This document shows, one piece after another, positions 10,486 to 63,429 of a stretch of DNA of 64,000 nucleotides. This stretch comes from Corallococcus sp. RDP092CA (GTDB lineage: Bacteria; Myxococcota; Myxococcia; Myxococcales; Myxococcaceae). The stretch lies in the NCBI RefSeq assembly GCF_041903675.1, contig NZ_JAYESI010000001.1, forward strand, positions 160,643 to 224,642, read 5' to 3'. How positions within the stretch are numbered: the stretch's first letter is position 1; every line of letters starts with the position of its first letter. A program made the translations under genes and the position numbers. The notes below the pieces were generated by a model. It did no database searches and was not told the origin of the DNA. It saw only the letters and a list, made by a program, of their open reading frames with translations.

Positions 10486-13400
10486 TTGCAGACCGTTCTT
10501 CCTCGCACGCTCATCCTCTGTGTCGCGGTCTTCGCCGCGGCCCCCGTCCACGCGCAGGAGGCCGCGCTGTTGCACGCTGCGCCGCCTCGCGCCGAGGCCC
10601 GGCAGCCCCTCCAGTTGGATGCGACGCTGGTGGATGGCGGCAGGGTGCTGGAGCTCTTCGTCCGCTATCGTGGACCGGGAGAGCCGTACGTCCAGGTCCC
10701 CATGGAGCGGCAGTACGGGGACCTGTACCGCGCGCTGATCCCCGCCGAGCACATGGTGCCCCCCGGCGTGGAGTACTTCGTCGAGGCGGCCATGGTGGAC
10801 GGAGCGCGCACGCCGCTCTTCATGTCCGCGCTCCGGCCCGCGAGGGTGATGGTGGGGACGCAGCCCGCGGAGCCTCCGCCGGGCCGTGCGTCGCCGGGCC
10901 GCAGGGGGGCCCGTGAGCCTCCGAGGTCCGCACCCGAAATCGATGCGTTCGCGCCGCCGTCGGCGGCAGGGGAGGGCAACGACGCGGGAGGCGCATCGGC
11001 TTCGCCCCCGGCCTCAGGCACGGATTCCCGGGCTGCGACCCGGCCGGGAGCCGCTGACTCCCGCGCAGCGAGCACTCCGGATGGCACGGACCCGCGCGCC
11101 TCCACGCATGCGAATGGTCCGGACTCGGCCGAGCCGGGCCGCACGGATGGCACGGGCTCACGCGCCGTGAACCGCGCGGATGCGTCCGACCCGCGCGCCC
11201 CAACCCGCGTGAACGGGACGGACCCGCATGCCTCGAGCCGCACGGATGGCGCGGACCCGCGGGCCCCGCGCCGCGCGGACGCGTCCGACCCGCGCGCCTC
11301 CACCCGCACGGGCGGTCCGGATGCACGGGCGCCCGGCCGTGCGGACACCCAGGGCTCACGGGCTCCGGGCGACTCCGATGACGCCATGGCCGCGCTCAAC
11401 GCGGACCTCCCTCCAGACACCCGCTCCGACTCCCGCGCGTCGCCTTCCTCCCGCTCCACCATGGATGACGACCTGGCGCTCTACAGCGCGGAGGACGTGC
11501 TGGCGGTGACGACCCTCCAGGAGGAGGCCGTGCGCACCGTGCCGGCCATCGGCGCGTCCTTCAACCGCGCGCAGATGATCGCCCTGGGCGCCCGCACCGT
11601 GGCGGACGTGCTGGACGTGGTGCCCGGTGTGTCCGTCAGCCGCGACGTGCAGGGCTTCCACCGCACCGCCATCCGGGGCCTGCGCAACGACGCGGAGGTC
11701 CTCTTCCTCCTCGACGGCCACCGCCTCAACAACTTCTACGACGGCAAGGCGCTGATGAACCTGCCGGTGGAGAACCTGGAGCGCATCGAGGTCATCCGCG
11801 GCCCCGGCTCCGCTGTCTACGGCGCGGGCGCCTTCCAGGGCGTCGTCAACCTCATCACGAACCACGCGGACGGCGTGCGCGGCGCCATCACCACCGGCGG
11901 CGTCCCCCGCGACGATGGCCGCCTCGCGCTCGCCACCGATGGCCACCTGTCCGCCGCGCACACCACCGGCGACCTGCGCCTGTTCGCGGACCTGGACCTG
12001 TGGAGCCAGGAGGGAGGCTCGCTCGTCGTCAGCCACGACGCGCTCGACGACGAGGCCGTGGCCCAGGGGCTGCGCGACGTGGAGCAGCCGGCGGGCAGCA
12101 CCCGCGACGGCCGCTTCCTCCTCAACGCGGGCGGGGGCGTGTCCTACGGCCTGGACAGCGCCGGCCGCGTGGGCGTCACCGCGCGCTACCTCACGGAGAA
12201 GCGGGACGCGCTCGTCGGCCTGTTCGACACCGTGGGCAACGACTCGCGGCTGTCCTGGGACGTGCTCCTCGCGGACCTCACCTGGGAGCGGCCCCTCGCC
12301 GACGGCGGCCAGGTGCGCGCCCGGCTGGGGTTCGATCAGCAGTCCACCGACCGCCTGTTCCAGCTCACCCCCCACGACTTCCGCACCGGCGCCGGCGCGG
12401 AGCGCCTCTTCCCCGACGGCCTCCGCGAGCAGACGCAGGTCACCGTGCGCACCGTGTCGGGCGCCGTGGACGCGGACCTCGCGCTGGCCAAGGAGAACCA
12501 CCTCACGCTGGGCTTCGTCGCCGAGCAGCAGTCCCTGTCCCGCTACGACTACACCACCAACTACACGCTCGACGGCCGCCTGCGCCCCAGCCCCGCCGCC
12601 CCCGAGGGCCTGGTGGACCTCACGCAGGGCGCGGCCGCCCGCCGCCTCAGCCTGGGCCTGTCCGCGCAGGACCAGTGGACCGTGCTCTCCGCGCTCACGC
12701 TCACCTTCGGTCTGCGCCTGGACGCCATCCAGCTACCGGACGCGGACGCGGCTGAGGGCGTGCTCGACACGAGCAAGATGGTGGTGCGCGTCAACCCGCG
12801 CGTGGGCCTGGTCGTCGCCGCGTCGGACGCGCTCGTGCTCAAGGCGCTGTACGGCCGCGCCTTCCGCGCCCCCACGCCCCAGGAACTGGTCGAGCGCATC
12901 CCCGACACCACCTACAACCAGGGCCGCTTCGAGGGAAACCCGCTCCTGCAGCCCACCACCGTGGACACCTTCGAGCTGGGCATGGACCTGGTCCAGGCCG
13001 CGGGCGACACCCGCGTGCGCGTGCGCGCCAACGCCTTCCTCCAGAACTTCGCCTCGCCCATCACCCCGGTGGACACCAGCGGCAACATCGTCCCCCTGCG
13101 CAACCGCGAGCTGGGCGTGCGCGTGTACGGCGTGGAGGCGGAGGCCCGGCTGGAGGCGTCGAAGCGCGCCGCCGCGTGGGTCAACGCCAGCCTGTCGCGC
13201 GCGCAGGACCTGGAGCTGCCGGACCAGTCCCGCCTGCTCACGGACGTGCCCCAGGCGCGCTTCAACGCGGGCGTGTCCATGCCGCTGGGCGACTGGCTGA
13301 ACCTGGACGTGGTGGTGCGCTCCGGCGCCGAGCGCCGCAACAACAACCGCTCCACGCTGGAGCTCATCCGCCGCTACCAGATTCCCGCCTACAGCCTCAT

Positions 13401-14449: not shown

Positions 14450-14731
14450 CTACTGCTTGGAGGGCTCGTCCGAGGAGGCCGGGGCGCTGGTCGTCACCGC
14501 CGCCGGAGCGGAGGTGGCGGTCTGCGCCGCGGCGGCCACCGGCCGTGGAGGCAGGGGGCCCAGCACGTCATTGACCGAGGGCATCCGACGGATGTCAGCG
14601 CGGGCGACCTTCCACGCCTGCTGGACGATCCACGACAGGGAACGATCCTGTCGGGTCGCCTCGCGCTGGATCTCTTCCAGCATGTCCTCGGGGAAATAGA
14701 GGGATTGCTTGCGGTGATCCGTGGTGGCCAT
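14450..14731 (-). CDS. Ribbon-helix-helix (CopG/Arc-like) DNA-binding protein
   Basis: MATTDHRKQSLYFPEDMLEEIQREATRQDRSLSWIVQQAWKVA is an RHH fold pattern. Disordered C-tail. Confidence 0.55.
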   Translation of the reverse strand: MATTDHRKQSLYFPEDMLEEIQREATRQDRSLSWIVQQAWKVARADIRRMPSVNDVLGPLPPRPVAAAAQTATSAPAAVTTSAPASSDEPSKQ

Positions 14732-14739
14732 TGCCCTGT

Positions 14740-14949
14740 CTACGGCCTTTCTTCGCGCGGGTCATTGCGCTCGTCGCCCGTGACGTCATTGACGGCGGGG
14801 AATGACTTGATGCGGTCGCGGGCGATCTTCCAGGCCTGCTGCACCACCCATGAGAGGGAGCGGTCCTGCCGGTTCGCCTCCTCCTGGATCTCCTTCAGCA
14901 TCTCCTCGGGGAAGTACAGCGACTGCTTGCGCTTGTCGGTGCCTGCCAT
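14740..14949 (-). CDS. Ribbon-helix-helix protein, tandem paralog
   Basis: MAGTDKRKQSLYFPEEMLKEIQEEANRQDRSLSWVVQQAWKIA is about 75% identical to its neighbour. DNA is also clearly duplicated. Confidence 0.55.
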   Translation of the reverse strand: MAGTDKRKQSLYFPEEMLKEIQEEANRQDRSLSWVVQQAWKIARDRIKSFPAVNDVTGDERNDPREERP

Positions 14950-16934: not shown

Positions 16935-18851
<1,917 letters not shown>

Positions 18852-35004: not shown

Positions 35005-36258
<1,254 letters not shown>

Positions 36259-39281: not shown

Positions 39282-41336
39282 GTGCCGACGATGAAGCCAC
39301 AGGACCTGCCGCCGGGGATGGGCCCGCGCGGAAAGAAGAGCGACAAGCCAACGCCCACGAAAGGTGGGTTCAAGTTTGGCTCACCACTGGGCTACATCCT
39401 CCTGCTCGTCCTGGGGTTCCTGCTGTTCCGGAACGTGTTTCAGGACGCGGGCGTGCGCCGGGTGTCGTACAGCCAACTGCGCGACGCGGTGGAGAACAAC
39501 CAGTTCAGCCGCGTGCAGATCTCCAACGAGTGGGTGAAGGGCTACCTGAAGGACAACGCCCAGCCGCCCCCGGGCGAGCGCGGCACGCTGCGCAGCGAGC
39601 CCAGCGCCCTGCCGTGGATGGCCTACCGCGTCCCCGGTGACGAGGGCCTGGTGCCGCTGCTGGAGCAGAAGGGCATCCAGTTCGAGGCCGTCCCGCAGTC
39701 CAGCTTCAGCGAGGTGTTGTGGATCTGGCTCATCCCCATGGGCCTGCTCATCCTCTTCTGGAGCTTCATGATGCGCCGGATGTCCGGCGGCATGGGCCAG
39801 GGGCCGCAGAGCGTCATGTCCTTCGGCAAGACGCGCGCGAAGGTGCAGGCGGAGTCCGACACCGGCGTGGGCTTCAAGGACGTGGCCGGCGTGGACGAGG
39901 CCGTGGACGAGCTCCGGGAGATCGTCGAGTTCCTCAAGACGCCGGAGAAGTTCCGCCGCCTGGGCGGTCGCATCCCCAAGGGCGTGCTGCTGGTGGGGCC
40001 GCCGGGCACGGGCAAGACGCTGCTGGCGCGCGCCGTGGCCGGCGAGGCGGGCGTGCCCTTCTTCAACCTCTCCGGCTCGGAGTTCGTGGAGATGTTCGTG
40101 GGCGTCGGCGCGGCCCGCGTCCGCGACCTCTTCGCCCAGGCCACGGCCAAGGCGCCGTGCATCATCTTCATCGACGAGCTGGACGCCATCGGCAAGAGCC
40201 GCAACTCGGGCGTGGCCGGCGGCCACGACGAGCGCGAGCAGACGCTCAACCAGCTGCTGGCGGAGATGGACGGCTTCGACAGCCGCGCGGGCCTCATCAT
40301 CCTGGCGGCGACGAACCGCCCGGAGATCCTGGACAGCGCGCTGATGCGCCCGGGTCGCTTCGACCGGCAGGTGCTGGTGGACCGCCCGGACAAGCGCGGC
40401 CGCGAGCGCGTGCTCGAGATCCACGCCAAGGGCGTGAAGCTGGCGGCGGACGTGGACCTGAAGCAGATCGCCTCGCGCACGCCGGGCTTCGCCGGCGCGG
40501 ACCTGGCCAACGTGGTCAACGAGGCGGCGCTGCTCGCCGCGCGCAAGAACCGCGACGCGGTGATGCGGGCGGACTTCGACGAGGCCATCGAGCGCGTGGT
40601 GGCGGGCCTGGAGAAGAAGAACCGCCGCATGAACGAGCGCGAGAAGGAGATCGTCGCGCACCACGAGGCCGGCCACGCGGTGGTGGGCTGGATGCTGCCC
40701 TACGCGGAGCGGGTGACGAAGGTGTCCATCATCCCGCGCGGCCTGGCGGCCCTGGGCTACACCATGTCGCTGCCTCTGGAGGACCGCTACCTCATGTCCT
40801 TCGACGAGCTGCGCGACAAGATGGCCGGCATGATGGGCGGCCGCGCGGCGGAGGAGATCTTCATCGGCGAGGTGTCCACCGGCGCGTCCAACGACATCAA
40901 GCAGGCGACGGAGATCGCCAAGATGATGGTCCGCGACTACGGCATGAGCACGCTGGGGCCGGTGGCGCTGAGCGGGGAGCAGGGGCCGGGCTTCCTGCGG
41001 TCCGCGGGCCTGCCGGAGTCGCGCAGCTACTCCGAGCAGACGGCGCGGATGATCGACGAGGAGGTCCGAAAGATGGTCTCCGAGGCGCTGGACCGGGCCC
41101 GGGCGCTCCTCCACACCCACCGTGAAAAGGTGGAGGCCCTGGCGGCGCGGCTGCTGGCCACGGAGGTCATCGAGGAGGAGGCGATGATCACCATCCTGGG
41201 GCCCAAGGTGCAGGCGCAGCGCGGCCTGCTCCACCCGGAGGCGCGCACGGTCATCTCCGCCCACCCCGTGGGGGGGACGGAGACCGAGCCGCCGGTGCCG
41301 CCCACGCAGCACTCCGAGGGCAAGCTCGACTCGTAG
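39282..41336 (+). CDS. ftsH: ATP-dependent zinc metalloprotease FtsH, second paralog
   Basis: GPPGTGKT Walker A and HEAGHAVVG zinc site. Basic N-terminal tail and C-terminal extension. Confidence 0.9.
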
Positions 41337-47119: not shown

Positions 47120-47195
<76 letters not shown>

Positions 47196-47240: not shown

Positions 47241-47475
47241 CTATGTTGCCTACGAGGCTCCGCGCCGTTTCGAGTGCCCGCGCGACCGGGCCGAGGAACT
47301 GGTGCATCAAGGAGCCTGACGTCCTCCACTCCCCCCGTCCAATCGTGGCGCGAACAGCGACCGGTCGCTCGTGCCGGTGCCGAGCGGGAGGACCGCGCAA
47401 GCTTCGCTGGGATTGTCGGACCCTGAAGTCAGGATGCCGCGCCTCCTGATTCCAGGAAGGTACCTTGGGGGGAGT

Positions 47476-48774
47476 ATGAGATTGATTGCAGTGGCGTCTT
47501 TGCTGCTTCTGTTGGCGGGGTGCGCGACCCCCCGCGTTGTCCACATCGACGTTGGGAATGGGCAGCGAGTCGTCCATGAGTCGGTGGAGGTTGACCCAGT
47601 TCAGGTGGGTGAGGACGAGTTCAAGGCGGCCCTCACGCAGCTCCTCCTCGACATGCGAATGGACGTTGCCTTCCGCGAGACGGATGCAGCCGACCGGCGA
47701 GGGTGGGTGAGGTCCCGGTCGTTGCTCGCATCCTCGAAGGGGCTCGCGGATTCGGGGGCTGGGGTGTCTCCGGAGTCCCTGTATTCGCGCATCTGCCCCG
47801 AGGGCGACGAGTGCTTGACCCTGGTGGACGGCACGGGGCTGCCCTTCTCGCGCAAGGACCGAACGTTGATGGCCCTGTCGTTCGCGCTGGATACGGTCTG
47901 GGGGAGCGTCGAGGCCGAGATCGGCAAGCTGCTGAACCCGGTGGTGCTCAAGGCCATGGTGACCTCCGCGGCGCTGACCGTGCTCCTCACGATGGCGCTG
48001 CCCGAGCCTGTCACGAAGGTCCTCGCCGTGGCGTTGACGGCGGCGATGGTGGCCTACCTGGGGGTGGTGCCTGTCTGGGAGATGGGACGGGGCTTCGTGC
48101 GGCTGTGGGACAACGCGGAGAGGGCAACGAGCGTCCTCGAGTTGCAGGACATCGGTCATCGCTTCGGGAAGGTGCTGGGGACGAACGGCACGCGTGTCCT
48201 GGTGCTGCTGGTCACGGCGGCCCTGGGTGGGAGGAACGCGATGGCGGCCCAGGGGCCCCGGCTCCCGGGCTTCCCCCAGGCTGTGTCCCGAGGACAAGCC
48301 GAGGCGGGCTTCCAACTCGGAGCGGCGATGAATGGCGGCGTGTCGTCCATCGCGCTGCCCGCTGCTGGAGTGCTGAACGTGACGCTGGCTCCGGGCGCGA
48401 CCGCTGTCGTCGCGATGTACTCGAATGGTATTCAGGGTGACGCTGAAGGTCCGGTTCACCACATCTGTACGAACAAGAACCCGGTTTCGGCTGTATCAGG
48501 CGGTCCCTGGACACCGTTGTGCGAAGAGGTCTTTGCCCGAGCCGGGATGTCCCTGGAAGATGTCTCCAACAAAGTCCGACTCGGGGGACACCAGGGACCT
48601 CATCCACGCGAATACCACGAGGCGGTATTGCGGCGCTTGAATGACGCGCTAGGAAAATGCAGGAGCATGGACGCGTGTCGGAGTCGCCTGGTCGAAGAGC
48701 TTGCCAGAATCGCAGAGGAGCTTCTGACGCCAGGTTCAGCGCTTCGGCGCCTGATTGTGCCGAAAGAGGGCTAG
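47476..48774 (+). CDS. Lipoprotein polymorphic-toxin candidate with C-terminal AHH/HNH-type nuclease domain (SitA-like)
   Basis: MRLIAVASLLLLLAGC lipobox after GGGGGGAG RBS. Two hydrophobic helices mid-protein. C-terminus VHHICTNKN...AGMSLEDVSNKVRLGGHQGPHPREYHEAVLRRL resembles the AHH nuclease signature. GC drops at the C-terminal domain. Confidence 0.55.
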   Translation: MRLIAVASLLLLLAGCATPRVVHIDVGNGQRVVHESVEVDPVQVGEDEFKAALTQLLLDMRMDVAFRETDAADRRGWVRSRSLLASSKGLADSGAGVSPESLYSRICPEGDECLTLVDGTGLPFSRKDRTLMALSFALDTVWGSVEAEIGKLLNPVVLKAMVTSAALTVLLTMALPEPVTKVLAVALTAAMVAYLGVVPVWEMGRGFVRLWDNAERATSVLELQDIGHRFGKVLGTNGTRVLVLLVTAALGGRNAMAAQGPRLPGFPQAVSRGQAEAGFQLGAAMNGGVSSIALPAAGVLNVTLAPGATAVVAMYSNGIQGDAEGPVHHICTNKNPVSAVSGGPWTPLCEEVFARAGMSLEDVSNKVRLGGHQGPHPREYHEAVLRRLNDALGKCRSMDACRSRLVEELARIAEELLTPGSALRRLIVPKEG

Positions 48775-48777
48775 TGG

Positions 48778-49368
48778 ATGTTCAATGGAAATTACTATGA
48801 TGTTGGAATTGCGGATGTCCCTCAGTGGGTGCTGGAGTTGCCTGTTCTTGCATCTGGCGACGAGCTAGACGACCCGTGGATGTTTGGGGACGGAAGGCGC
48901 CTGCCAGAGCCAGGACTCCTCAAGAGCAGGCCGTTCCGTGACGGGCCACAACGGTCCTTCTCTGTGGCGAATTCAGGGAGAACGCCTATCGCAGACGAGC
49001 AGGCTGCGAATGTCTTTCGCAAGCTGGCGCCTGCTGATGTTCAGGTGTTCCCCATCGAAGTCGCAGGAGCGAGGAAGCCACTCTTTGTCATCAACGCAGC
49101 CAGGTGCTTCAAATGCGTTGATGAGACAAACTCCAAGGAGGTGCAGATCTATCCTCCAGAGGGTGTCGCACCGGAGAGAGTCGGAACGTACCGTGCCATT
49201 TACGGACTGCGTATCGACCCTTCCAAATCAGAGGGTGCCCGGGTCTTTCGGATACAAGGCTATTCTTCTGCGTTCATCGTCTCTGAGGACATCAAGACCG
49301 CCCTCGAAGCAGTCGGGAACCTGGGCGTTTCGTTCGAGCGTGTGACCGGACCGCACGAGCCTCACTGA
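48778..49368 (+). CDS. Candidate cognate immunity protein
   Basis: ATG lies 4 nt after the toxin stop. Lowest-GC part of the window. 196 aa. No signal peptide. Confidence 0.4.
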   Translation: MFNGNYYDVGIADVPQWVLELPVLASGDELDDPWMFGDGRRLPEPGLLKSRPFRDGPQRSFSVANSGRTPIADEQAANVFRKLAPADVQVFPIEVAGARKPLFVINAARCFKCVDETNSKEVQIYPPEGVAPERVGTYRAIYGLRIDPSKSEGARVFRIQGYSSAFIVSEDIKTALEAVGNLGVSFERVTGPHEPH

Positions 49369-49375
49369 CGGTCGG

Positions 49376-49615
49376 TCAGGGGCGCGACAGCGTCGCGGGT
49401 GCTCCTCCCGAGGGGAGCAGCGCTTCGCGGTTCTTGAAGAAGATGAAGACACCCATGACGACGAGGAACAGGGAGAAGGCCCGTTTGAGCGCCGCCTGGG
49501 AGACGTAGTGGGACGCCCAGGTGCCGAGGAGGATCCCGGCCACGGCGATGGCCGTGAAGATCCCCAGCGCGCGCCAGGGGACCTCCACGTGGCCCAGGTA
49601 GCCGGCGAAGCCCAC
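49376..49615 (-). pseudogene. C-terminal remnant of a TauE/SafE (TSUP) sulfite-exporter family gene
   Basis: 79-aa ORF equal to the last two TM helices of TSUP proteins (ILLGTWASHYVSQAALKRAFSLFLVVMGVFIFF). No in-frame upstream continuation. Confidence 0.45.
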
Positions 49616-49702
49616 GAAGGCCGAGCGTGGCGAGCCGCGAGGCTTGGAGGTCTTGATAGGGGGAGGGCGTCATCGCTTGTCTCCTGAGGGCCGCGTGGGA
49701 CG

Positions 49703-50404
49703 TCACGCGTCCTGGGGTGAGGGCGCCGTGTGACCACAGGCGCGGTTGGCCGGGACGGCGAGGTCCATCTTCCGGGGCTTGGGAAGATGGAGGTTCTCCA
49801 TGATGTGGATGAACTCCTCGCGGCTCTTGCCGACGAGGCGCGGGTGGTGCCGCTTCTCCTCGGCGATGGTCGTCATCGTGAAGCCCCTGTAGTCATGGGC
49901 GGGGTAGACGCGCGTCGCGTCCGGCAGGTGGAAGAGGACGCGGGTGATGGAGTCGTGGAGCCGGGCCGCGTCTCCGTTCTGGAAGTCGGTGCGGCCGTTG
50001 CCGCGCACGAGCAGCGCGTCGCCGGTGAAGACCCGATCGCCCAGCAGGTAGCTGACGCTGTCATCCGTGTGGCCCGGCGTGGCGAGCACCTGGAAGACGA
50101 GTTGCCCGATGCGCACCTCGTCCCCGTGGCGCACCTGGAGATCGGCGCAGGCGGCGCCGCCCACGCTCCCCACCACCGTGCACCGCGTGCGCTCGCGCAG
50201 CACGCCCGACGCGGTGACGTGGTCGGCGTGCACGTGGGTGTCGAGGACGTGCGTGAGGGTGAGGTCCAGCTCGCGGACCAGTTGTAGATCGCGGTCGACC
50301 TGCTCCAGCACGGGATCGATGAGGACGGCCTGCCGCGTGGCCTCGTCACCGAGGAGGTAGGTGTACGTCGAGGACTCGGAATCGAAAAGCTGGCGGAAAA
50401 TCAT
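49703..50404 (-). CDS. pdo: Persulfide dioxygenase (ETHE1/Blh-like MBL-fold)
   Basis: MIFRQLFDSESSTYTYLL N-terminus. HVHADH metal motif. 233 aa. Confidence 0.8.
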   Translation of the reverse strand: MIFRQLFDSESSTYTYLLGDEATRQAVLIDPVLEQVDRDLQLVRELDLTLTHVLDTHVHADHVTASGVLRERTRCTVVGSVGGAACADLQVRHGDEVRIGQLVFQVLATPGHTDDSVSYLLGDRVFTGDALLVRGNGRTDFQNGDAARLHDSITRVLFHLPDATRVYPAHDYRGFTMTTIAEEKRHHPRLVGKSREEFIHIMENLHLPKPRKMDLAVPANRACGHTAPSPQDA

Positions 50405-50522
50405 GGTCGAAGCCTCCTGCCCGTGAGAGCCAGGGCGCCGCGAAAGGATTCAGGAGGGGGCCCGGTGATACATCCTGGCCGCGGTCCGAATCCTCCGCGG
50501 TGGAACCTGGCTCTCATCCGGC

Positions 50523-50948
50523 ATGACCTCCTTCATCCTCCTTCCCCTCGTGGGCGGGGCGCTCATCGGCCTGAGCGCCTCCTTGCTCCTCCTGGCCAAT
50601 GGCCGGGTGGCCGGAATCAGTGGGGTGGTGGGCTCGCTGCTCACCCCCGCCCGCGGCGACATCGCCTGGCGCCTGTCCTTCCTCGCAGGGCTCCTGGGCG
50701 GCGGGCTGCTGCTGGCGGCGGTGCGCCCCGGGACCTTCGCGGCCACCGCGCCCCCGGGCGTCGGCGGCGCCATCACGCTGGTGGGCGCCGGACTGCTGGT
50801 GGGCTTCGGTTCGCTGCTGGGCAACGGCTGCACGAGCGGACACGGCGTCTGCGGCATCAGCCGGGGGGCGACCCGCTCCATCGCCGCCACGCTCACCTTC
50901 ATGGCCACTGGCGGCCTCACCGTCTTCCTCGTCCGCCACGTCTTCTAG
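50523..50948 (+). CDS. YeeE/YedE-family sulfur-transport membrane protein (half 1)
   Basis: [12 protein letters not shown] signature. 4 TM segments. Confidence 0.7.
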
Positions 50949-50960
50949 GGAGGCCGCTCC

Positions 50961-51437
50961 ATGCGTTCCAACCTCAGTGCGCTGCTCAGCGGCGCTCTCT
51001 TCGCGGTCGGGCTGGGCCTCGCGGGCATGACGGACCCGGCCAACGTTCTCGGGTTCCTCGACGTCGCGGGGGACTGGGACTTCCGGCTCGCCTTCGTGAT
51101 GGCGGGCGCCATCGCCGTCCATGCGGCGCTGCGGCCCCTCGTCCTCCGACGTGAGCGCCCCCTGTTCGCCGGGACGTTCCCTGCCTTCACATCGACGCGG
51201 GTGGACCCCAGGCTCCTCGTGGGGGCGGGCCTCTTCGGCGTGGGGTGGGGGCTCGGAGGCTACTGCCCGGGCCCCGCGCTCACCTCCCTCGCCAGCGGGG
51301 CGTCAGGGGTGCTCCTCTTCGTGCCCGCGATGTTGGTGGGCATGGGGCTCGCCCACGGGTGGCGGTCGCGGCACGGCGGGCGTGCGGACGCCGCGGACCC
51401 GGAGTCCGCGAGCGTGGGCGCGACGCCAGCGTCATGA
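50961..51437 (+). CDS. YeeE/YedE-family membrane protein (half 2)
   Basis: [11 protein letters not shown] signature. Confidence 0.7.
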
Positions 51438-51866
51438 CTCGAGCGAGCGCTTTTTCGGGAGCGCCGCCGCGCTGGCACCTCGGCGTCCGGGGAATGGCGA
51501 TGTGAAGCGGATGGAGTCCGCGCGCTGCCGCCTGGGACCTGACCCCAGGCCGTCAGGGCAGGCGCGCCTCTTCGCGGCTCGGCCCGGGGGGCCTGACGCG
51601 GACCCAGAGGGGGCCCACCTGCCTCCCGCGGCAGTGGCTTCCCGGGCCCGAGCCTGGACGCCGGGGGGAAACGAGGGGGAGGGGGCCCTGGCCGGCCGAC
51701 CCGCTGGCGACCTGAACCCGGCGATAAGCCCGAAGCTGGCCGCCTGCCTGCTTTCCCTGGTGTCAACAGGGAATCTGTCGCACAACGTCACCCGTTAACT
51801 GGCGCGTTCGGCCGTTCGTGCGAGGCGCACGGGAACGCCGCCGGCCCTCTTCGGGAGTCAACGACC

Positions 51867-52640
51867 GTGAGCAACCTCATGAAGGAGTCCGTGCTGCGCG
51901 TGCACCACTGGACCGACACCCTCTTCAGCTTCGTCACCACGCGCGACCCGGGGTTCCGCTTCGCCAGCGGCCAGTTCACGATGATTGGCCTGGAGGTGGA
52001 GAACCGCCCGCTGCTGCGCGCCTACAGCATGGTGAGCGCGCACTATGACGACCACCTCGAGTTCCTCAGCATCAAGGTGCCCGGCGGGCCCCTGACCTCC
52101 CGGCTCCAGCACCTCAAGGAGGGCGACAACGTCCTGGTCAGCCGCAAGGCCACCGGGACGCTCGTCCTCAAGCACCTGCTGCCCGGCAAGAACCTCTACA
52201 TGCTGAGCACGGGCACGGGCCTGGCGCCGTTCCTGAGCCTCGTGAAGGACCCGGAGATGTACGAGCAGTTCGACCGCGTCATCCTCACGCACACCTGCCG
52301 GCGGGCCGAGGAGCTGGCCTACCACGACCTCTTCCTCCATGAGCTGCCGCGCAACGAGTTCTTCGGGGAGCTGGTGAAGCAGAAGCTCACGTACTACCCG
52401 AGCGTCACGCGCGAGGACTTCCGCAACACCGGCCGCATCACGGATCTCATCCGCAGCGAGAAGCTGTTCAAGGACGTGGGCCTGCCGCCGCTGAACCCGG
52501 AGGTCGACCGGGTGATGCTCTGCGGCAGCCCCGCCATGCTCGCGGACCTCACGGTCATGCTGGAGGAGCGCGGCTTCCGGGAGGGCACCCCGGGAGAGGC
52601 CGGCCACTACGTCACCGAGAAGGCCTTCGCCGAGCGCTGA
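51867..52640 (+). CDS. fpr: Ferredoxin/flavodoxin--NADP+ reductase
   Basis: VHHWTDTLFSF...RAYS FAD-binding RxYS motif. MLSTGTGLAPF NADP motif. About 257 aa. Confidence 0.8.
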   Translation: MSNLMKESVLRVHHWTDTLFSFVTTRDPGFRFASGQFTMIGLEVENRPLLRAYSMVSAHYDDHLEFLSIKVPGGPLTSRLQHLKEGDNVLVSRKATGTLVLKHLLPGKNLYMLSTGTGLAPFLSLVKDPEMYEQFDRVILTHTCRRAEELAYHDLFLHELPRNEFFGELVKQKLTYYPSVTREDFRNTGRITDLIRSEKLFKDVGLPPLNPEVDRVMLCGSPAMLADLTVMLEERGFREGTPGEAGHYVTEKAFAER

Positions 52641-58360: not shown

Positions 58361-59734
58361 CTAGCGTTGCGAAACGCCGCTGTCGGTCCGCTCCCGGCGG
58401 TGGATGGTGGAGACATCAATCCCCAGCAGCTCCGCCGCCCGCGTCTTGTTGCCTCCGCAGCGGGCAACCACCCACGCGATGTACTCACCCTCCAGCTGTC
58501 GCAGCGGCACCACCTGCCCGTGGGCCGCGGCCAGCGGGTGGGCTTCCGGCGCTCCGTCGGAGGTGTGCAGCCGCAGCTGGGCCAGGTCCACGGTGGGCTG
58601 CGCCCCCAGGACGACCAGGCGCTCCACCAGGTTCTCCAGCTCGCGCACGTTGCCGGGCCACGGCATGCGCGTGAGCGTGGCCACGACCTCCGGGGACAGG
58701 GTGGTGACGGGGGAGCGCGGGTTGCGGGCGCGGGCCTGGGCCACGAAGTGCTCGGCGAGCTTCGGGATGTCCTCCGTGCGCTCGCGCAGCGGGGGGACCC
58801 GGAGCGAGACGACGTTGAGCCGGTAGAAGAGGTCCGCCCGGAACCGGCCTTCCTTCACCCGCGCGTCCAGGTCCTGGTGCGTGGCGGCGAGGATGCGCAC
58901 GTCCACCTTGCGCGAGCCGTCCGCGCCCACCGCGCGCACCTCGCCGTCCTGGAGGACGCGCAGCAGCTTCGCCTGGAGCTCTGCGGGCATGTCCCCGATT
59001 TCGTCGAGGAAGAGCGTGCCCTCGTCCGCCTCCACGAAGAGGCCCCGGCGCGTGGTGGTGGCGCCGCTGAAGGCGCCCTTGATGTGGCCGAACAGCTCGC
59101 TCTCCAGCAGGGCGTGGGGCAGGGCGGTGCAGTTGACCGCCACGAAGGGCGCCTGGCTGCGCGGCCCCTCGGAGTGCAGCGCCCTCGCGACCAGCTCCTT
59201 GCCGCTGCCGCTCTCGCCCCGGATGAGCACCGGCGCCTCGGAGGCCGCCACGCGGTCGATGAGCTCATAGAGCGTGCGCATGGGCACGCTGTGGCCCAGC
59301 AGCGCCCCCATGCCGTTGCGCTGGACCACCTGGCGCTTGAGGTCGCGGTGCTCGGAGCGAAGCCGGCGGGTCTCCAGCGCCCGACCGACGTGGAGCAGCA
59401 CTTCGTCCAGCCGGAAGGGCTTGGTGAGGTAGTGCCAGGCGCCGCGCTTCATCGCCTCCACCGCGCTCTCCACCGCGCCGAAGGCGGTCATCAGCAGCAC
59501 CGGCAGCTCCGGGTCGTGGCGGCGCGCCGCCGCGAGCACGTCCAGCCCGTCCACCTCCTCCATGCGCAGGTCGCACAGGATGACGTCGTAGACGCGGGCC
59601 TTGAGCTGGGCGATGGCGTCCGCGCCGCTCGTGGAGAGGTCCACGCGGTAGCCCGCGTCCGTGAGGGGCTCCTTCAACATCTGTCCCATCTCCTCGTGGT
59701 CATCCACCACGAGGATGCGCGCGCTAGACGGCAT
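58361..59734 (-). CDS. Sigma-54-dependent response regulator (NtrC family)
   Basis: Receiver domain (ILVVDDHEE...CDLRMEEVDG), AAA+ with ESELFGHIKGAFSGA, C-terminal HTH. GGGAGG RBS. Confidence 0.9.
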   Translation of the reverse strand: MPSSARILVVDDHEEMGQMLKEPLTDAGYRVDLSTSGADAIAQLKARVYDVILCDLRMEEVDGLDVLAAARRHDPELPVLLMTAFGAVESAVEAMKRGAWHYLTKPFRLDEVLLHVGRALETRRLRSEHRDLKRQVVQRNGMGALLGHSVPMRTLYELIDRVAASEAPVLIRGESGSGKELVARALHSEGPRSQAPFVAVNCTALPHALLESELFGHIKGAFSGATTTRRGLFVEADEGTLFLDEIGDMPAELQAKLLRVLQDGEVRAVGADGSRKVDVRILAATHQDLDARVKEGRFRADLFYRLNVVSLRVPPLRERTEDIPKLAEHFVAQARARNPRSPVTTLSPEVVATLTRMPWPGNVRELENLVERLVVLGAQPTVDLAQLRLHTSDGAPEAHPLAAAHGQVVPLRQLEGEYIAWVVARCGGNKTRAAELLGIDVSTIHRRERTDSGVSQR

Positions 59735-61904
59735 GCCGTTCCTCCCAGCCGGACGCCGCGGCCACCGGCCACCGCAGCGTGAAGACGGTGCCCCGGCCGG
59801 GCTCGCTCTCGACCCCCACCTGGCCACCGTGATTGCGGACGATCTGCGCCACCACGCTCAGCCCCAGGCCCGTGCCCTGGCCGCGCTTCTTGGTGGTGAA
59901 GAAGGGGTCGAACACCTGGTGCAGGTGCTCCGGTGCGATGCCCCGGCCGTCGTCCTGGAGGCGGATCTCCACCGCCGGGGTGTCCCCCGCCATGCACGCG
60001 GACGCGCTCAGCCGCACGTGGCCCCCGGCGCTGCACGCGTCGCAGGCGTTGAGCGCGAGGTTGAGGAGCACCTGCTGGAGCTGATCCGCGTCCGCGGCCA
60101 GGCTGGGCAGCCGCTCGGGCACGTCCAGCTCGAAGTGGACGCGCCGGCGCTCGGCCTCCACGTCGAGCAGCTCCTGGAGGCCGCGCACCACGGGCGCCAG
60201 CGGGACGACGCCCGCCCGCGCGGGTTGCAGGCGCGACAGGTCCAGCAACTGGCGGATGATGCGGCTCACCCGGTCGATCTGCGTGACGATGGCGGTGAGG
60301 CCCCGGCCCTGCGGGTGCTCCACGCCGCCCACCTTCAGGAGCATGTACTCGGCGTGGCCGCGGATGATGCCCAGCGGCGTGCCGATCTCATGGGCCACGC
60401 CCGCGGCGAGCACGCCCACCGTGGCCAGCTTCTCCGCGCGCAGCAGCTGGTCCTCCAGCATGCGCACGTTGCTCAGGTCCTCCAGCACGAGCAGCGTGCT
60501 GGCCTCGCCGTCGCCGTGCTCCAGCGGGACGGCGTGGACGTTGAACTGGTCCTTCTCGTTGAAGAGGCTGAGCGGCTCGCCGTGCAGGCTGCGCACGGCG
60601 CCCTGGTCCCGCGCGGCCAGCACCATCGCCTCCAGCCGCTGCACCGCCGCCGCGGGCGCGGCGGGGAAGGCCTCAGGGAGCGTGCTGCCCACGGCGGTGG
60701 CGGACAGGCGCGCGCGCAGGGCCTGGTTCACGGCGCTGATGCGGCCCTCGTGGTTCAGGGCCAGGATGCCCGTGGGGATGTGGTCGAGGATCTTCTGCGT
60801 CTTCTCGTGCAGGTGCGCGAACCGGGCGGCGTGGCGCAGGCTCTCCCGGAGCGCCACCGCGCGGCGGTTGGCGAGCACCACATAGGTCCCGAACGCCACC
60901 AGGAACACCGCCACGAGGAGCGCCGCCAGCGACAGGCGGAGCACCAGCGTGCGCTCGTGGGAGCGCAGGGCGCTGGTGGAGGAGAGCGTCGCCACGGACC
61001 AGGACGCCTCGCCCCGCATGCGCAGCGGGCGGAACGTGGCCACCGCGTCCGCGGAGCCCAGGCCCAGGCGCGAGGCCACCGCCTCGTGGAGGCGCAGCGT
61101 CCCGGACCCGCCCGCGCGCATCCGCTCCACCAGCGCGCGCAGCCCGGGCACGCGCGCGCCGTCGGGGCCCTCCAGCCGCCGGTACCAGGACGCCAGGGTC
61201 GGGTCGCTCATGGGGGCGGGCGTGCCGTGGGCGCCCAGGAGGAGCAGCCGCGTGTTCTCCTCCACCGTCACCATGCGCAGCGGCGCGAAGAGGGGCTCGG
61301 TGTCCACGAGGATGGCGACGGCGCCTCCGCCCCCGGGCGCGTCGGCGTCGAGGCGGGTGGCGAAGACGCGCATCCAGCCGGAGGAGGCGGGCCCCTCGAT
61401 GGGGTGCGAGGGGATGACGTACCCCGCCGGGGCCGTGAGCGCCTGCCGCGCGGTCTCCACGAGCGCCGCGGGGTGGACGGCCTCCCGGGACAGGTGGCGC
61501 GACTTGTGGTCCACCAGGAAGAGCCGCTCGTCGCCGTCCGGGCCCAGCACGGCGATGGCGCGATACTGGCCCACGGACTCCAGCAGGGCGCGCAGCTCGT
61601 TGTGGTGATCCGCGGCCGAGCCGGGCTGGGCGAGCAGCTCGCTCGCGAAGCGCAGGTTGTCCCCCAGGTCCTCGAGGGACCGGGCGACGCCGCTGGCGGC
61701 CTCATCCAGCTGGGCCTGCCGGTCGCGCGCGAACTGCTCCACCAGGGCCTGCCGGTCGCGCTGGATGAACCACACGGCGCCGCCCGCCACGCTGGCCAGG
61801 GAGACGAGCAGGAGGACGAGGGGCGCGAGGAGCCGGTGCATGGGGGAGAGGAGCCAGGACAACGCAAGGCCCGGGCCAGTCGTTCCCCCAGGGGACCTCG
61901 CCAC
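59724..61904 (-). CDS. Sensor histidine kinase (NtrB-like partner)
   Basis: TM helix, periplasmic domain, second TM, HisKA H-box (AHEIGTPL), HATPase (GLGLSVV). Overlaps the regulator start by 11 nt. Alternative start at 61841. Confidence 0.85.
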   Translation of the reverse strand: MARSPGGTTGPGLALSWLLSPMHRLLAPLVLLLVSLASVAGGAVWFIQRDRQALVEQFARDRQAQLDEAASGVARSLEDLGDNLRFASELLAQPGSAADHHNELRALLESVGQYRAIAVLGPDGDERLFLVDHKSRHLSREAVHPAALVETARQALTAPAGYVIPSHPIEGPASSGWMRVFATRLDADAPGGGGAVAILVDTEPLFAPLRMVTVEENTRLLLLGAHGTPAPMSDPTLASWYRRLEGPDGARVPGLRALVERMRAGGSGTLRLHEAVASRLGLGSADAVATFRPLRMRGEASWSVATLSSTSALRSHERTLVLRLSLAALLVAVFLVAFGTYVVLANRRAVALRESLRHAARFAHLHEKTQKILDHIPTGILALNHEGRISAVNQALRARLSATAVGSTLPEAFPAAPAAAVQRLEAMVLAARDQGAVRSLHGEPLSLFNEKDQFNVHAVPLEHGDGEASTLLVLEDLSNVRMLEDQLLRAEKLATVGVLAAGVAHEIGTPLGIIRGHAEYMLLKVGGVEHPQGRGLTAIVTQIDRVSRIIRQLLDLSRLQPARAGVVPLAPVVRGLQELLDVEAERRRVHFELDVPERLPSLAADADQLQQVLLNLALNACDACSAGGHVRLSASACMAGDTPAVEIRLQDDGRGIAPEHLHQVFDPFFTTKKRGQGTGLGLSVVAQIVRNHGGQVGVESEPGRGTVFTLRWPVAAASGWEERHAV

Positions 61905-62030: not shown

Positions 62031-62582
62031 ATGAGCCAGAACCTCTACGACATCCCCCTCACCGGCATTGACGGTTCCCCCCGCACGCTCGGTCAGTACC
62101 GGGGCAAGGTCCTGCTGGTGGTGAACGTCGCGTCCAAGTGCGGCCTGACGCCCCAGTACGAAGGCCTCCAGAAGCTCTACGCGAGCCGGCAGGGCCAGGG
62201 CCTGGAGGTGCTGGGCTTCCCCGCGAACAACTTCCTGGGGCAGGAGCCGGGGAGCGAGGCGGAGATCCAGCAGTTCTGCACCACCACGTACGACGTGACC
62301 TTCCCGCTGTACTCGAAGATCTCCGTGGTGGGGCCGGACAAGCACCCGCTCTACCACGCGCTGACGGGCGCCATCCCGGAGGCCACGGGGGAGGGGCCCA
62401 TGCGCGCGAACCTCAAGGGCTACGGCATCGAGCCCAACCCGCAGCCGGAGGTGCAGTGGAACTTCGAGAAGTTCCTCATCGGCCGGGATGGCCGCGTCGC
62501 GGGCCGCTTCGCGCCGGACGTGACGGCGGACGATCCGCGGCTCGTGCAGGCCATCGACGCGGAGCTGGCGAAGCCGGCCTGA
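62031..62582 (+). CDS. gpx: Glutathione peroxidase
   Basis: LLVVNVASKCGLTPQY active-site Cys motif and FPANNF/WNFEKF motifs. Confidence 0.9.
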   Translation: MSQNLYDIPLTGIDGSPRTLGQYRGKVLLVVNVASKCGLTPQYEGLQKLYASRQGQGLEVLGFPANNFLGQEPGSEAEIQQFCTTTYDVTFPLYSKISVVGPDKHPLYHALTGAIPEATGEGPMRANLKGYGIEPNPQPEVQWNFEKFLIGRDGRVAGRFAPDVTADDPRLVQAIDAELAKPA

Positions 62583-62584
62583 GG

Positions 62585-63280
62585 TCAGCGCTCCGGCGGC
62601 GGGAGCCGTCCGCAGGCGCGGTTGGCCGGGACGGCGACGTCGATCTTCCGGGGAGGCGGCAGCCGGAGGTCCTTCATCACCTGGATGAACTCCTCGCGGC
62701 GCTTCCCCGCGAGGCGCGGGTTGTGCCGCTTCTCCTCGCCGATGCTCGTCGCCAGGTGCCCGTGGTAGTCGTGCCCGGGGTGGACGAGCGTCGCGTCCGG
62801 GAGCCGGAAGAGGACGCGGGTGATGGAGTCATAGAGCTGGCCCGCGTTGCCGTTCTGGAAGTCGGTGCGGCCATTTCCGCGCACGAGCAGCGCGTCGCCG
62901 GTGAACACGCGGTCCCCCAGCAGGTAGCTCACGCTGTCGTCCGTGTGGCCCGGCGTGGCGAGCACCTGGAAGGCGCACCCGCCGACGCGCACCGTGTCGC
63001 CGTGCCGGAGGTGGAGGTCGGCGCACTCGGCCCCGCCGGCTCCGGCCACCACCTGGCACCGCGTGCGCTCGCGCAGCGTCCCCGACGCGGTGACGTGGTC
63101 GGCGTGCACGTGGGTGTCGAAGACGTGGGTGAGGGTGAGGTCCAGCTCGCCGACGAGCCGCAGGTCGCGCTCCACCTGCTCCAGCACCGGGTCGATGAGC
63201 ACGGCCTGACGCGTGGCCTCGTCACCGACGAGGTACGTGTACGTCGAGGACTCGGAGTCGAAGAGCTGGCGGAAGACCAT
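62585..63280 (-). CDS. pdo: Persulfide dioxygenase, second copy
   Basis: About 80% aa identity to the 49703-50404 product. DNA similarity visible over about 700 bp. Confidence 0.8.
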   Translation of the reverse strand: MVFRQLFDSESSTYTYLVGDEATRQAVLIDPVLEQVERDLRLVGELDLTLTHVFDTHVHADHVTASGTLRERTRCQVVAGAGGAECADLHLRHGDTVRVGGCAFQVLATPGHTDDSVSYLLGDRVFTGDALLVRGNGRTDFQNGNAGQLYDSITRVLFRLPDATLVHPGHDYHGHLATSIGEEKRHNPRLAGKRREEFIQVMKDLRLPPPRKIDVAVPANRACGRLPPPER

Positions 63281-63429
63281 GACGAGGCTCCTATCACGGG
63301 AGGAGCGCCTCCTCCGGCTGCCAGGGGGCGCGGCAGGGGTGTCCGCTCCTCGACGTTCCGCCACCTCGGAGGTCAGTAGGCGCGGGCCGCCTCGCCGCGC
63401 AGGCTCGCCCGCGTTCAATGGAGGACGGC

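Follow-up and report, generated by a model that had tools for sequence, protein, structure and literature searches.

Two type I persulfide dioxygenase paralogs, a recently deleted accessory segment and a putative ECF-type promoter pair in a sulfide-detoxification gene set of Corallococcus sp. RDP092CA

A stretch of 64,000 nucleotides of Corallococcus sp. RDP092CA (contig NZ_JAYESI010000001.1, positions 160,643 to 224,642; hereafter the window, G+C 71.6%) was found to contain two genes for persulfide dioxygenase (PDO), named PDO1 at locus 1 and PDO2 at locus 2. They belong to the known sulfide and persulfide detoxification set of sulfide:quinone oxidoreductase (SQR), PDO and the half-size membrane protein pair YedE1/YedE2 (YedE1E2), in which one of the enzymes is an ortholog of a crystallised protein. 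The genes are very probably two ancient type I PDO paralogs within this set, with a recent deletion at locus 1 and with promoters of the extracytoplasmic function (ECF) sigma factor type in front of PDO1 and yedE1. The lead toward a sigma factor, drawn from comparison with relatives, would be the only novel element of the system. The features had been described earlier in a first-pass annotation and were checked by open reading frame (ORF) listing, Pfam and BLASTP; all of them were present at the positions given there (Table 1).

Table 1. Features of the two persulfide dioxygenase loci in the window
Feature	Positions	Strand	Remarks
PDO1, type I (ETHE1-like) Fe(II) persulfide dioxygenase	49703-50404	-	233 aa; ortholog of Myxococcus xanthus PDO (PDB 4YSB)
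PDO2, second type I persulfide dioxygenase	62585-63280	-	231 aa; Corallococcus-specific paralog clade
Promoter-like motif GAATCC-N16-GGCTCTCA toward PDO1	50424-50451	-	putative ECF-type -35/-10; followed by GGAGG and ATG
Promoter-like motif GAATCC-N17-GGCTCTCA toward yedE1	50488-50516	+	ends 6 nt before ATG
YedE1 (PmpA-like), half-size YeeE/YedE membrane protein	50523-50948	+	141 aa; signature residues 102-111, with C103 and C110
YedE2 (PmpB-like), half-size partner	50961-51437	+	158 aa; GYCPGP at residues 100-105, with C102
Rhodanese gene remnant	49620-49673	-	first 18 codons; ATG at 49673; blastn match to L081 8704-8758 and to L086
tauE (TSUP sulfite-exporter family) remnant	49376-49619	-	last ~82 codons
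gpx, glutathione peroxidase	62031-62582	+	Pfam GSHPx 5.6e-35; convergent with PDO2
SQR, type II (human SQOR-like), N-terminal 190 aa	63430-64000	+	gene continues past the window end
NtrC-type response regulator (REC domain)	58364-59734		paired with PAS histidine kinase 59724-61904

Identity and relationship of the two persulfide dioxygenases

Both proteins contained a Pfam Lactamase_B domain and were closer to solved PDOs than to glyoxalase II. Among PDB sequences, PDO1 matched M. xanthus PDO (MxPDO, 4YSB) at 2.7e-134 and human ETHE1 (4CHL) at 3.7e-70 (phmmer), and PDO2 matched the same entries at 2.5e-122 and 1.6e-66, respectively. The hydroxyacylglutathione hydrolase (GloB) equivalog model scored 110-116 bits, far under its cut-off of 200.8. 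PDO1 was 84% and PDO2 77% identical to MxPDO at the same length.

The residues were compared with the type I PDO checklist and the T-H-x-H-A-D-H-x-T/S motif defined in PMC6060420, where the MxPDO structure 4YSB is cited to Sattler et al. 2015. In both copies the T56-H57-x-H59-A-D61-H62 motif was found to be identical to that of MxPDO, as were the iron ligands H57, H112 and D129 (2-His-1-Asp, MxPDO numbering), the second-sphere residues D140, H170 and S116, and the predicted glutathione (GSH)-binding residues R138, Y172, R189 and P210. The surface cysteines C86 and C223 were also found to be conserved in both copies, C223 being the type I-specific C-terminal cysteine (C247 in human ETHE1). Both window copies thus agree with MxPDO in the iron ligands, the THxHADH motif, the second sphere, the GSH-binding Arg/Tyr/Arg and C86/C223, and differ from it at a single checklist position, which is Lys211 in MxPDO and Arg in both copies. 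As all of the substrate-binding residues were present, the possibility that these metallo-beta-lactamase proteins lack PDO residues, raised in the first-pass annotation, fell away, and the PDO identification made there was upheld by the catalytic and substrate residues of both proteins. Judged by these residues, PDO1 and PDO2 are genuine persulfide dioxygenases of type I.

The PDO1 and PDO2 proteins were identical at 181 of 228 positions (79%, E 7e-137, BLASTP) and their DNA was 85.2% identical over 676 nt, with 92 mismatches and 6 gaps (blastn), which agrees with the earlier estimate of about 80% amino acid identity with recognisable DNA identity. The DNA similarity was confined to 49734-50405 and 62610-63281, which is the coding sequence (CDS) alone, and ended at the start codon. 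The flanking DNA was unrelated and the partner genes differed between the two loci. A dispersed duplication of a whole module had been proposed before; only the PDO CDS was common to both loci, and it was the PDO gene alone that was duplicated.

PDO2 was found to form a monophyletic clade restricted to Corallococcus (identity profiles and neighbor-joining tree), and the clade was present in every Corallococcus genome sampled. It contains no characterised member, unlike the lineage of MxPDO; PDO1 fell in the same tree among the orthologs that Myxococcus, Pyxidicoccus and Archangium possess in single copy, 4YSB being one of them. The PDO2-gpx arrangement recurred in four Corallococcus genomes (C. 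interemptor, CP172866, EGB and C. exercitus; loci L082, L084, L085 and L088). The proteins neighbouring the PDO loci were 94-99% identical to those of C. interemptor, with colinear gene order. The second PDO of M. xanthus (P0118) belonged to a different lineage with an unrelated context. No exact match was retrieved for the sequence of PDO1 or for that of P0001, its 99% relative.

Gene context and history of the two loci

The pair yedE1-yedE2 was found to be divergent from PDO1, with a gap of 12 nt between the two genes. YedE1 scored 26.6 bits with Pfam Sulf_transp, marginally under the cut-off of 27, and contained about four hydrophobic segments by hydropathy; YedE2 matched Pfam DUF6691 at 5e-38. 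YedE1 gave no match to PDB sequences up to E 1, and NCBIfam contained no model for the YedE halves. C103 and C110 of YedE1 and C102 of YedE2 (GxCPGP) were found to be invariant in 17/17 YedE1/YedE2 pairs, these being the pairs recovered next to PDO genes in the fetched loci. The split YeeE/YedE pair annotated earlier beside PDO1 was borne out by these Pfam matches and cysteines.

In published work, zero-valent sulfur was imported by both YedE halves together and by neither alone, and one cysteine per half was essential, in Cupriavidus C104 of CpYedE1 and C101 of CpYedE2 (PMC10812762). Operons of yeeE-yedE-pdo2 have been described in Acinetobacter and Serratia (PMC7315123). The association of PDO with YedE is therefore already known from the literature, and the intact pair of the window is a predicted zero-valent sulfur importer of a known family. 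As in YedE1E2 of Cupriavidus pinatubonensis, PmpAB of Serratia and the operon of A. baumannii, two half-size proteins stand beside a PDO, with essential cysteines at nearly equal positions (C103/C110 and C102 in the window). In systems of the A. baumannii/Serratia type the pair is co-transcribed with PDO, whereas in the window it is divergent from PDO1. The window also contained no BigR/ArsR repressor, unlike the yeeE-yedE-pdo2 systems, and a different promoter type is probable.

The PDO1 locus is a family-wide pdo-rhodanese-tauE cluster divergent from yedE1-yedE2, and of 88 loci centred on PDO, 17 contained PDO, YedE1, YedE2, rhodanese and TauE together, most of them from Myxococcota. Downstream of PDO1, an ORF of 79 codons at 49376-49615(-) matched Pfam TauE and corresponded to residues 191-272 of the intact 275-aa TauE of C. 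interemptor (tblastn). It fell short of a full-length TauE/SafE protein (about 250-275 aa) and was a pseudogene fragment without an in-frame start from the upstream gene. The 18 rhodanese codons were joined out of frame to the tauE tail, with the junction at 49619/49620, and by comparison with C. interemptor and Myxococcus most of the rhodanese gene and the first ~190 tauE codons were gone. A 6.4-kb metagenome contig (L170), found through the PilZ protein of the window and 99.1-100% identical to it on both sides, was found to contain complete genes for TauE (264 aa) and rhodanese (108 aa). About 851 bp of this contig (5124-5972) were missing from the window, with a 2-nt microhomology at the junction. 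The loss of rhodanese and tauE would thus be a very recent strain-level deletion, an assembly error being less likely. The TSUP remnant of the first-pass annotation was correctly named; what had escaped notice is that it marks one end of the ~851-bp deletion, which removed rhodanese as well.

An AHH-nuclease polymorphic toxin (467-aa ORF) and an Imm11 immunity gene were present at 47371-49368, just downstream of tRNA-Thr(CGT) at 47120-47195. The C-terminus of the toxin and the immunity gene (48513-49269) failed to align with the otherwise 99-100% identical contig L170 (blastn), which suggests a swap of the toxin/immunity cassette between near-identical strains.

At locus 2, gpx was found to end 2 nt from the PDO2 stop codon; it is a conserved neighbour of PDO2. 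The SQR fragment matched human SQOR (6MP5/6OI5) at 9.5e-58 over residues 6-185 (phmmer) and contained the FAD-binding N-terminus and the first redox cysteine in a conserved PVKCAGAPQK. The fragment was 89% identical to the SQR of C. interemptor, and the orthologs in L081, L084 and L085 were full length (404-422 aa). Both the partial SQR divergent from PDO2 and the convergent gpx had been recognised correctly before. As in the SQR-PDO units of heterotrophic bacteria, among them the pdo-sqr genes that FisR controls in Cupriavidus and A. baumannii (PMC7315123), a type II SQR adjoins a type I PDO, and TauE and rhodanese accessory genes are also found in the ancestral cluster. Unlike in these units, SQR is divergent from PDO2, and neither intergenic region of the window yielded a sigma-54 promoter; a further difference from the known units is that the position of SQR varies among Corallococcus genomes. 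In Corallococcus sp. EGB, C. exercitus and the window SQR was found to face PDO2, whereas in C. interemptor and CP172866 it was found at locus 1, behind yedE2 and accompanied by a gene for a sigma factor of 271 aa, and PDO2 faced a carbonic anhydrase gene. The SQRs were 85-90% identical to each other whatever their position and can be read as a single ortholog relocated among the genomes. Movement of SQR by inversion or recombination between the PDO copies was also considered and was dropped, because the copies stand in direct orientation and the order is otherwise colinear with that of C. interemptor. Between yedE2 and the FNR gene, the window contained an apparently non-coding gap of 430 bp (51438-51866), the place occupied by SQR and the sigma gene in C. 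interemptor and CP172866, and the gap aligned with these two genomes from 51675 onward only.

A single gene copied recently, or doubled in assembly, would account for the 85% DNA identity along the whole CDS. This reading is almost certainly wrong, as assembly duplicates, which the first-pass annotation had named as a possible flaw, are excluded by the 92 mismatches and 6 gaps, the unrelated flanks, the end of the identity exactly at the start codon and the monophyly of the PDO2 clade. C. interemptor, CP172866, EGB and C. exercitus moreover each carry both paralogs with these two contexts preserved; the paralogy is genus-wide in Corallococcus and is therefore neither recent nor an artefact. 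By tree and context, PDO1 and PDO2 are anciently diverged paralogs and the duplication is old. A different question is whether locus 1 is decaying, with PDO1 and YedE1E2 poorly expressed or redundant and PDO2-SQR as the working sulfide pathway. Such decay would fit the ~851-bp deletion, which is absent from the 99-100% identical contig L170, the lack of SQR and of the sigma gene behind yedE2 by comparison with C. interemptor, where the window has the 430-bp gap to the FNR gene, and the slightly higher dN between the window PDO1 and its orthologs (0.09-0.10 vs 0.066 among orthologs). It is nevertheless quite unlikely: the reading frames of PDO1, YedE1 and YedE2 were intact with all critical residues, both promoter motifs were intact, and after so recent a deletion decay would not yet be visible. 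SQR was also found at locus 2 in two other Corallococcus genomes, so its placement in the window is not a loss. Two old paralogs, with a deletion confined to the accessory genes of locus 1, remain the preferred reading.

The divergent motif pair and a candidate sigma factor

Between PDO1 and yedE1, two oppositely directed copies of a promoter-like motif were found. The exact motif occurred in 2 copies in the 64 kb, as against 0.01 expected by chance, and its relaxed form recovered the same 2 copies only (0.29 expected). The divergent pair was found to be conserved at the Corallococcus and Myxococcus loci. The distance from GAATCC to GGCTCTCA was constant at 16-17 nt, and the distance between the copies was about 10, 38 and 100 nt in three genera; the constant spacing within and the variable spacing between the motifs therefore speak for a pair of promoters and against a single palindromic operator. 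In three genera, including the loci L081 and L086, the yedE1 motif was found to end exactly 6 nt before the ATG, from which a leaderless yedE1 transcript is inferred. The relaxed consensus GAAyCC-N16/17-GGCTCyCA was found upstream of genes, was conserved across genera and was enriched beside the sigma gene described below. A scan of 49300-51900 for sigma-70 promoters and terminators found nothing. The first-pass annotation had stated that no CstR/SqrR/FisR-type regulator was evident; this held for the window in that no ArsR/CsoR-like sequence was found in it and no convincing sigma-54 promoter in either intergenic region. The statement missed the conserved divergent motif pair and, in the Corallococcus relatives, an FHA-GAF sigma-54 activator beyond SQR.

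A third copy of the motif was present in Myxococcus, upstream of a cluster of rhodanese, 5'-nucleotidase-family (Metallophos and 5_nucleotid_C) and DsrE genes. In the same Myxococcus locus (L086, 5036-6879), a separate ECF sigma gene (175 aa) and a zf-HC2 HxxxCxxC anti-sigma gene (253 aa) were found behind yedE1-yedE2, followed by the rhodanese, 5'-nucleotidase-family, YeiH-like and DsrE genes with the third motif copy before them.

In relatives, the cluster was found to contain a gene for a protein of ~271 aa with ECF sigma2/sigma4 regions followed by a C-terminal zf-HC2 domain with HxxxCxxC, of the zinc-finger anti-sigma (ZAS) type; the candidate is referred to as sigma-ZAS. Nine of its positions were invariant: C40, C82, C196, C216, H222, C226, C229, C233 and C243. 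The motif was present, in the exact or relaxed form, in 7/7 PDO loci that encode sigma-ZAS, and the PDO loci with the motif in turn encoded this protein (7/7); the relaxed form was that of four of them, from metagenome-assembled genomes of Polyangiales/Myxococcales. The motif was not found in the inspected Myxococcota PDO loci that lack sigma-ZAS, of which 5 were read by eye and more were scanned with a narrower regular expression. The association was tested independently on 80 metagenome loci retrieved solely because they matched the sigma protein: up to 200 nt from the sigma gene the motif density was 0.76/kb, and over the remaining sequence it was 0.04/kb. The genes directly downstream of the motif in the sigma-selected loci were found to encode PDO, thioredoxin, DUF302 and RND efflux components.

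SigR-RsrA is an example of a sigma / ZAS anti-sigma system. Like such systems, the candidate contains ECF sigma2/sigma4 regions and HxxxCxxC with invariant cysteines, and its apparent targets include thioredoxin. Unlike the sigma / ZAS anti-sigma pairs, it contains both domains in one soluble polypeptide, and it is linked to PDO and YedE genes, a link that was not found in the literature searched. No paper linking an ECF sigma factor to persulfide metabolism was found in that literature either, the supplements of the ECF classification lying outside its scope. The motifs before PDO1 and yedE1 are accordingly presented as candidate ECF-type promoters, probably served by the sigma factor with the fused HxxxCxxC ZAS domain.

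Several observations weigh against this explanation of the two loci. The sigma-ZAS gene was not found in the 64-kb window, and PDO2 and SQR were without the motif. PDO, YedE, TauE or rhodanese neighbours were present in 13/44 of the sigma-selected loci of at least 4 kb only, so the sigma family would have a broader thiol/redox-type regulon and would not be PDO-specific; it looks like a broader thiol/redox-stress regulator with the PDO cluster as one target. On the side of the enzymes, the replaced Lys211 is a predicted GSH contact of MxPDO, although the change to Arg is conservative, and the dN/dS of 0.2-0.4 in the PDO comparisons is uninformative because the G+C content at third codon positions (91-96%) is above 90%.

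Two other forms of control were weighed against the ECF-type promoters. SqrR operators have the form ATTC-N8-GAAT, and the GAATCC/GGATTC elements between PDO1 and yedE1 are mutually inverted and contain ATTC...GAAT, as would be expected if they formed the operator of an SqrR/BigR-type (ArsR family) persulfide-sensing repressor; the inner arms of Myxococcus L086 even pair as a perfect 8-bp palindrome around a spacer of 6 nt. The operator is very improbable, as the arm-to-arm distance varies among the three genera while each arm keeps its fixed distance from GGCTCTCA, and as single, unpaired copies were found directly downstream of sigma-ZAS genes in the metagenome loci. No ArsR/CsoR-like gene was found in the 64-kb window either (tblastn, with ArsR and CsoR query sequences), whereas the same queries, as a positive control, matched ArsR-type genes beside PDO in L013, L020 and L039. 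Control of PDO2-SQR by a FisR-like sigma-54 activator, either an FHA-GAF-AAA+ protein or the NtrC-type pair at 58361-61904, is unlikely. In its favour, each of the four Corallococcus loci encodes a 574-aa FHA-GAF-Sigma54_activat protein past SQR/ProCA, one or two genes on from SQR. Three relatives share with the window the position of the histidine kinase and NtrC-type regulator beside gpx/PDO2, and sigma-54 activator genes are present near other Myxococcota PDO loci, with -24/-12-like sequences and TGAAAC..GTTTCA repeats seen by eye in L001, L007, L008, L018 and L023. The FHA-GAF activator gene is outside the visible window, however, where by analogy with the relatives it would fall just past the right end, and the linkage of the kinase/regulator pair to PDO2 was not conserved in C. 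exercitus. No convincing GG-N10-GC was found in 63281-63429 or at conserved orthologous positions, and scoring of both intergenic regions and their orthologs for sigma-54 -24/-12 elements (GG-N10-GC vs TGGCACG-N4-TTGCW) gave only low, non-conserved values. Alignment of the PDO2 upstream regions of four genomes revealed no shared motif beyond the ribosome-binding region, and no CsoR-, ArsR- or sigma-54-type persulfide regulator with an operator or -24/-12 element was found at the locus in the window. ECF-type promoters for PDO1 and yedE1 thus remain the preferred reading of the motif pair.

Near the PDO/YedE genes of other Myxococcota, at loci without sigma-ZAS, sigma-54 activator genes were found in L001, L002, L004, L007, L018 and L023, with none detected in L008, and the elements seen by eye in L001, L007, L018, L023 and L008 resembled TGGCACG-N4-TCGCA. 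FisR-type control may, on this evidence, take the place of the ECF-type design in other Myxococcota. In the window, a perfect 7-bp inverted repeat, GGAGGAG-CGC-CTCCTCC (63299-63315), was present 19 nt upstream of the PDO2 start and was not conserved in three Corallococcus genomes, and two sigma-54 activator AAA+ domains (35305-36234 and 58364-59734) were 76% identical in DNA over ~350 bp. Apart from the sulfide genes, the window contained FtsH protease paralogs at 16935-18851 and 39282-41336 (identical in 78% of their DNA across 709 bp of the AAA+ core) and, in self-comparison, short tandem direct repeats at 14565-14931 (151 bp, 79%) and 11135-11307 (74 bp, 82%).

Proposed sulfur flow and significance

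What the sequences show is the identity of the genes, the conserved residues, the paralogy, the deletion and the conservation and enrichment of the motif; what the enzymes do, which way sulfur moves, the action of the motifs as promoters and the sigma factor serving them are inferred. By analogy with the characterised families, SQR would oxidise H2S to sulfane sulfur, which would be trapped as glutathione persulfide. YedE1E2 would bring extracellular zero-valent sulfur into the same glutathione persulfide pool, and PDO would convert glutathione persulfide with O2 to sulfite and glutathione. PDO1 and yedE1 would be transcribed from GAATCC-N16/17-GGCTCTCA by sigma-ZAS, which in relatives is encoded within the cluster.

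The organism is a soil predator bacterium with standard SQR/PDO sulfide-detoxification enzymes, and the PDO duplication itself adds nothing new; what goes beyond the ordinary is limited to the recent loss of rhodanese and tauE sequence and the pair of putative ECF-type promoters. The loss of rhodanese and of the sulfite exporter provides a natural mutant in which it can be asked whether these accessory genes matter. It may tentatively be proposed, as a possibility somewhat short of even, that the PDO/YedE1E2 genes of Myxococcaceae and some Polyangiales are transcribed from GAAyCC-N16/17-GGCTCyCA promoters by an ECF sigma factor that has a ZAS-like domain in the same polypeptide and senses thiols or sulfane sulfur, which would form a further class beside CstR, SqrR/BigR and FisR. 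In other lineages of Myxococcota, this gene set appears to be served by sigma-54 activators of the FisR type. No reactive-sulfur regulator is assigned in Myxococcota in the literature searched, and the motif pair, with its co-occurrence with sigma-ZAS, offers a testable candidate for reactive-sulfur sensing in this phylum.

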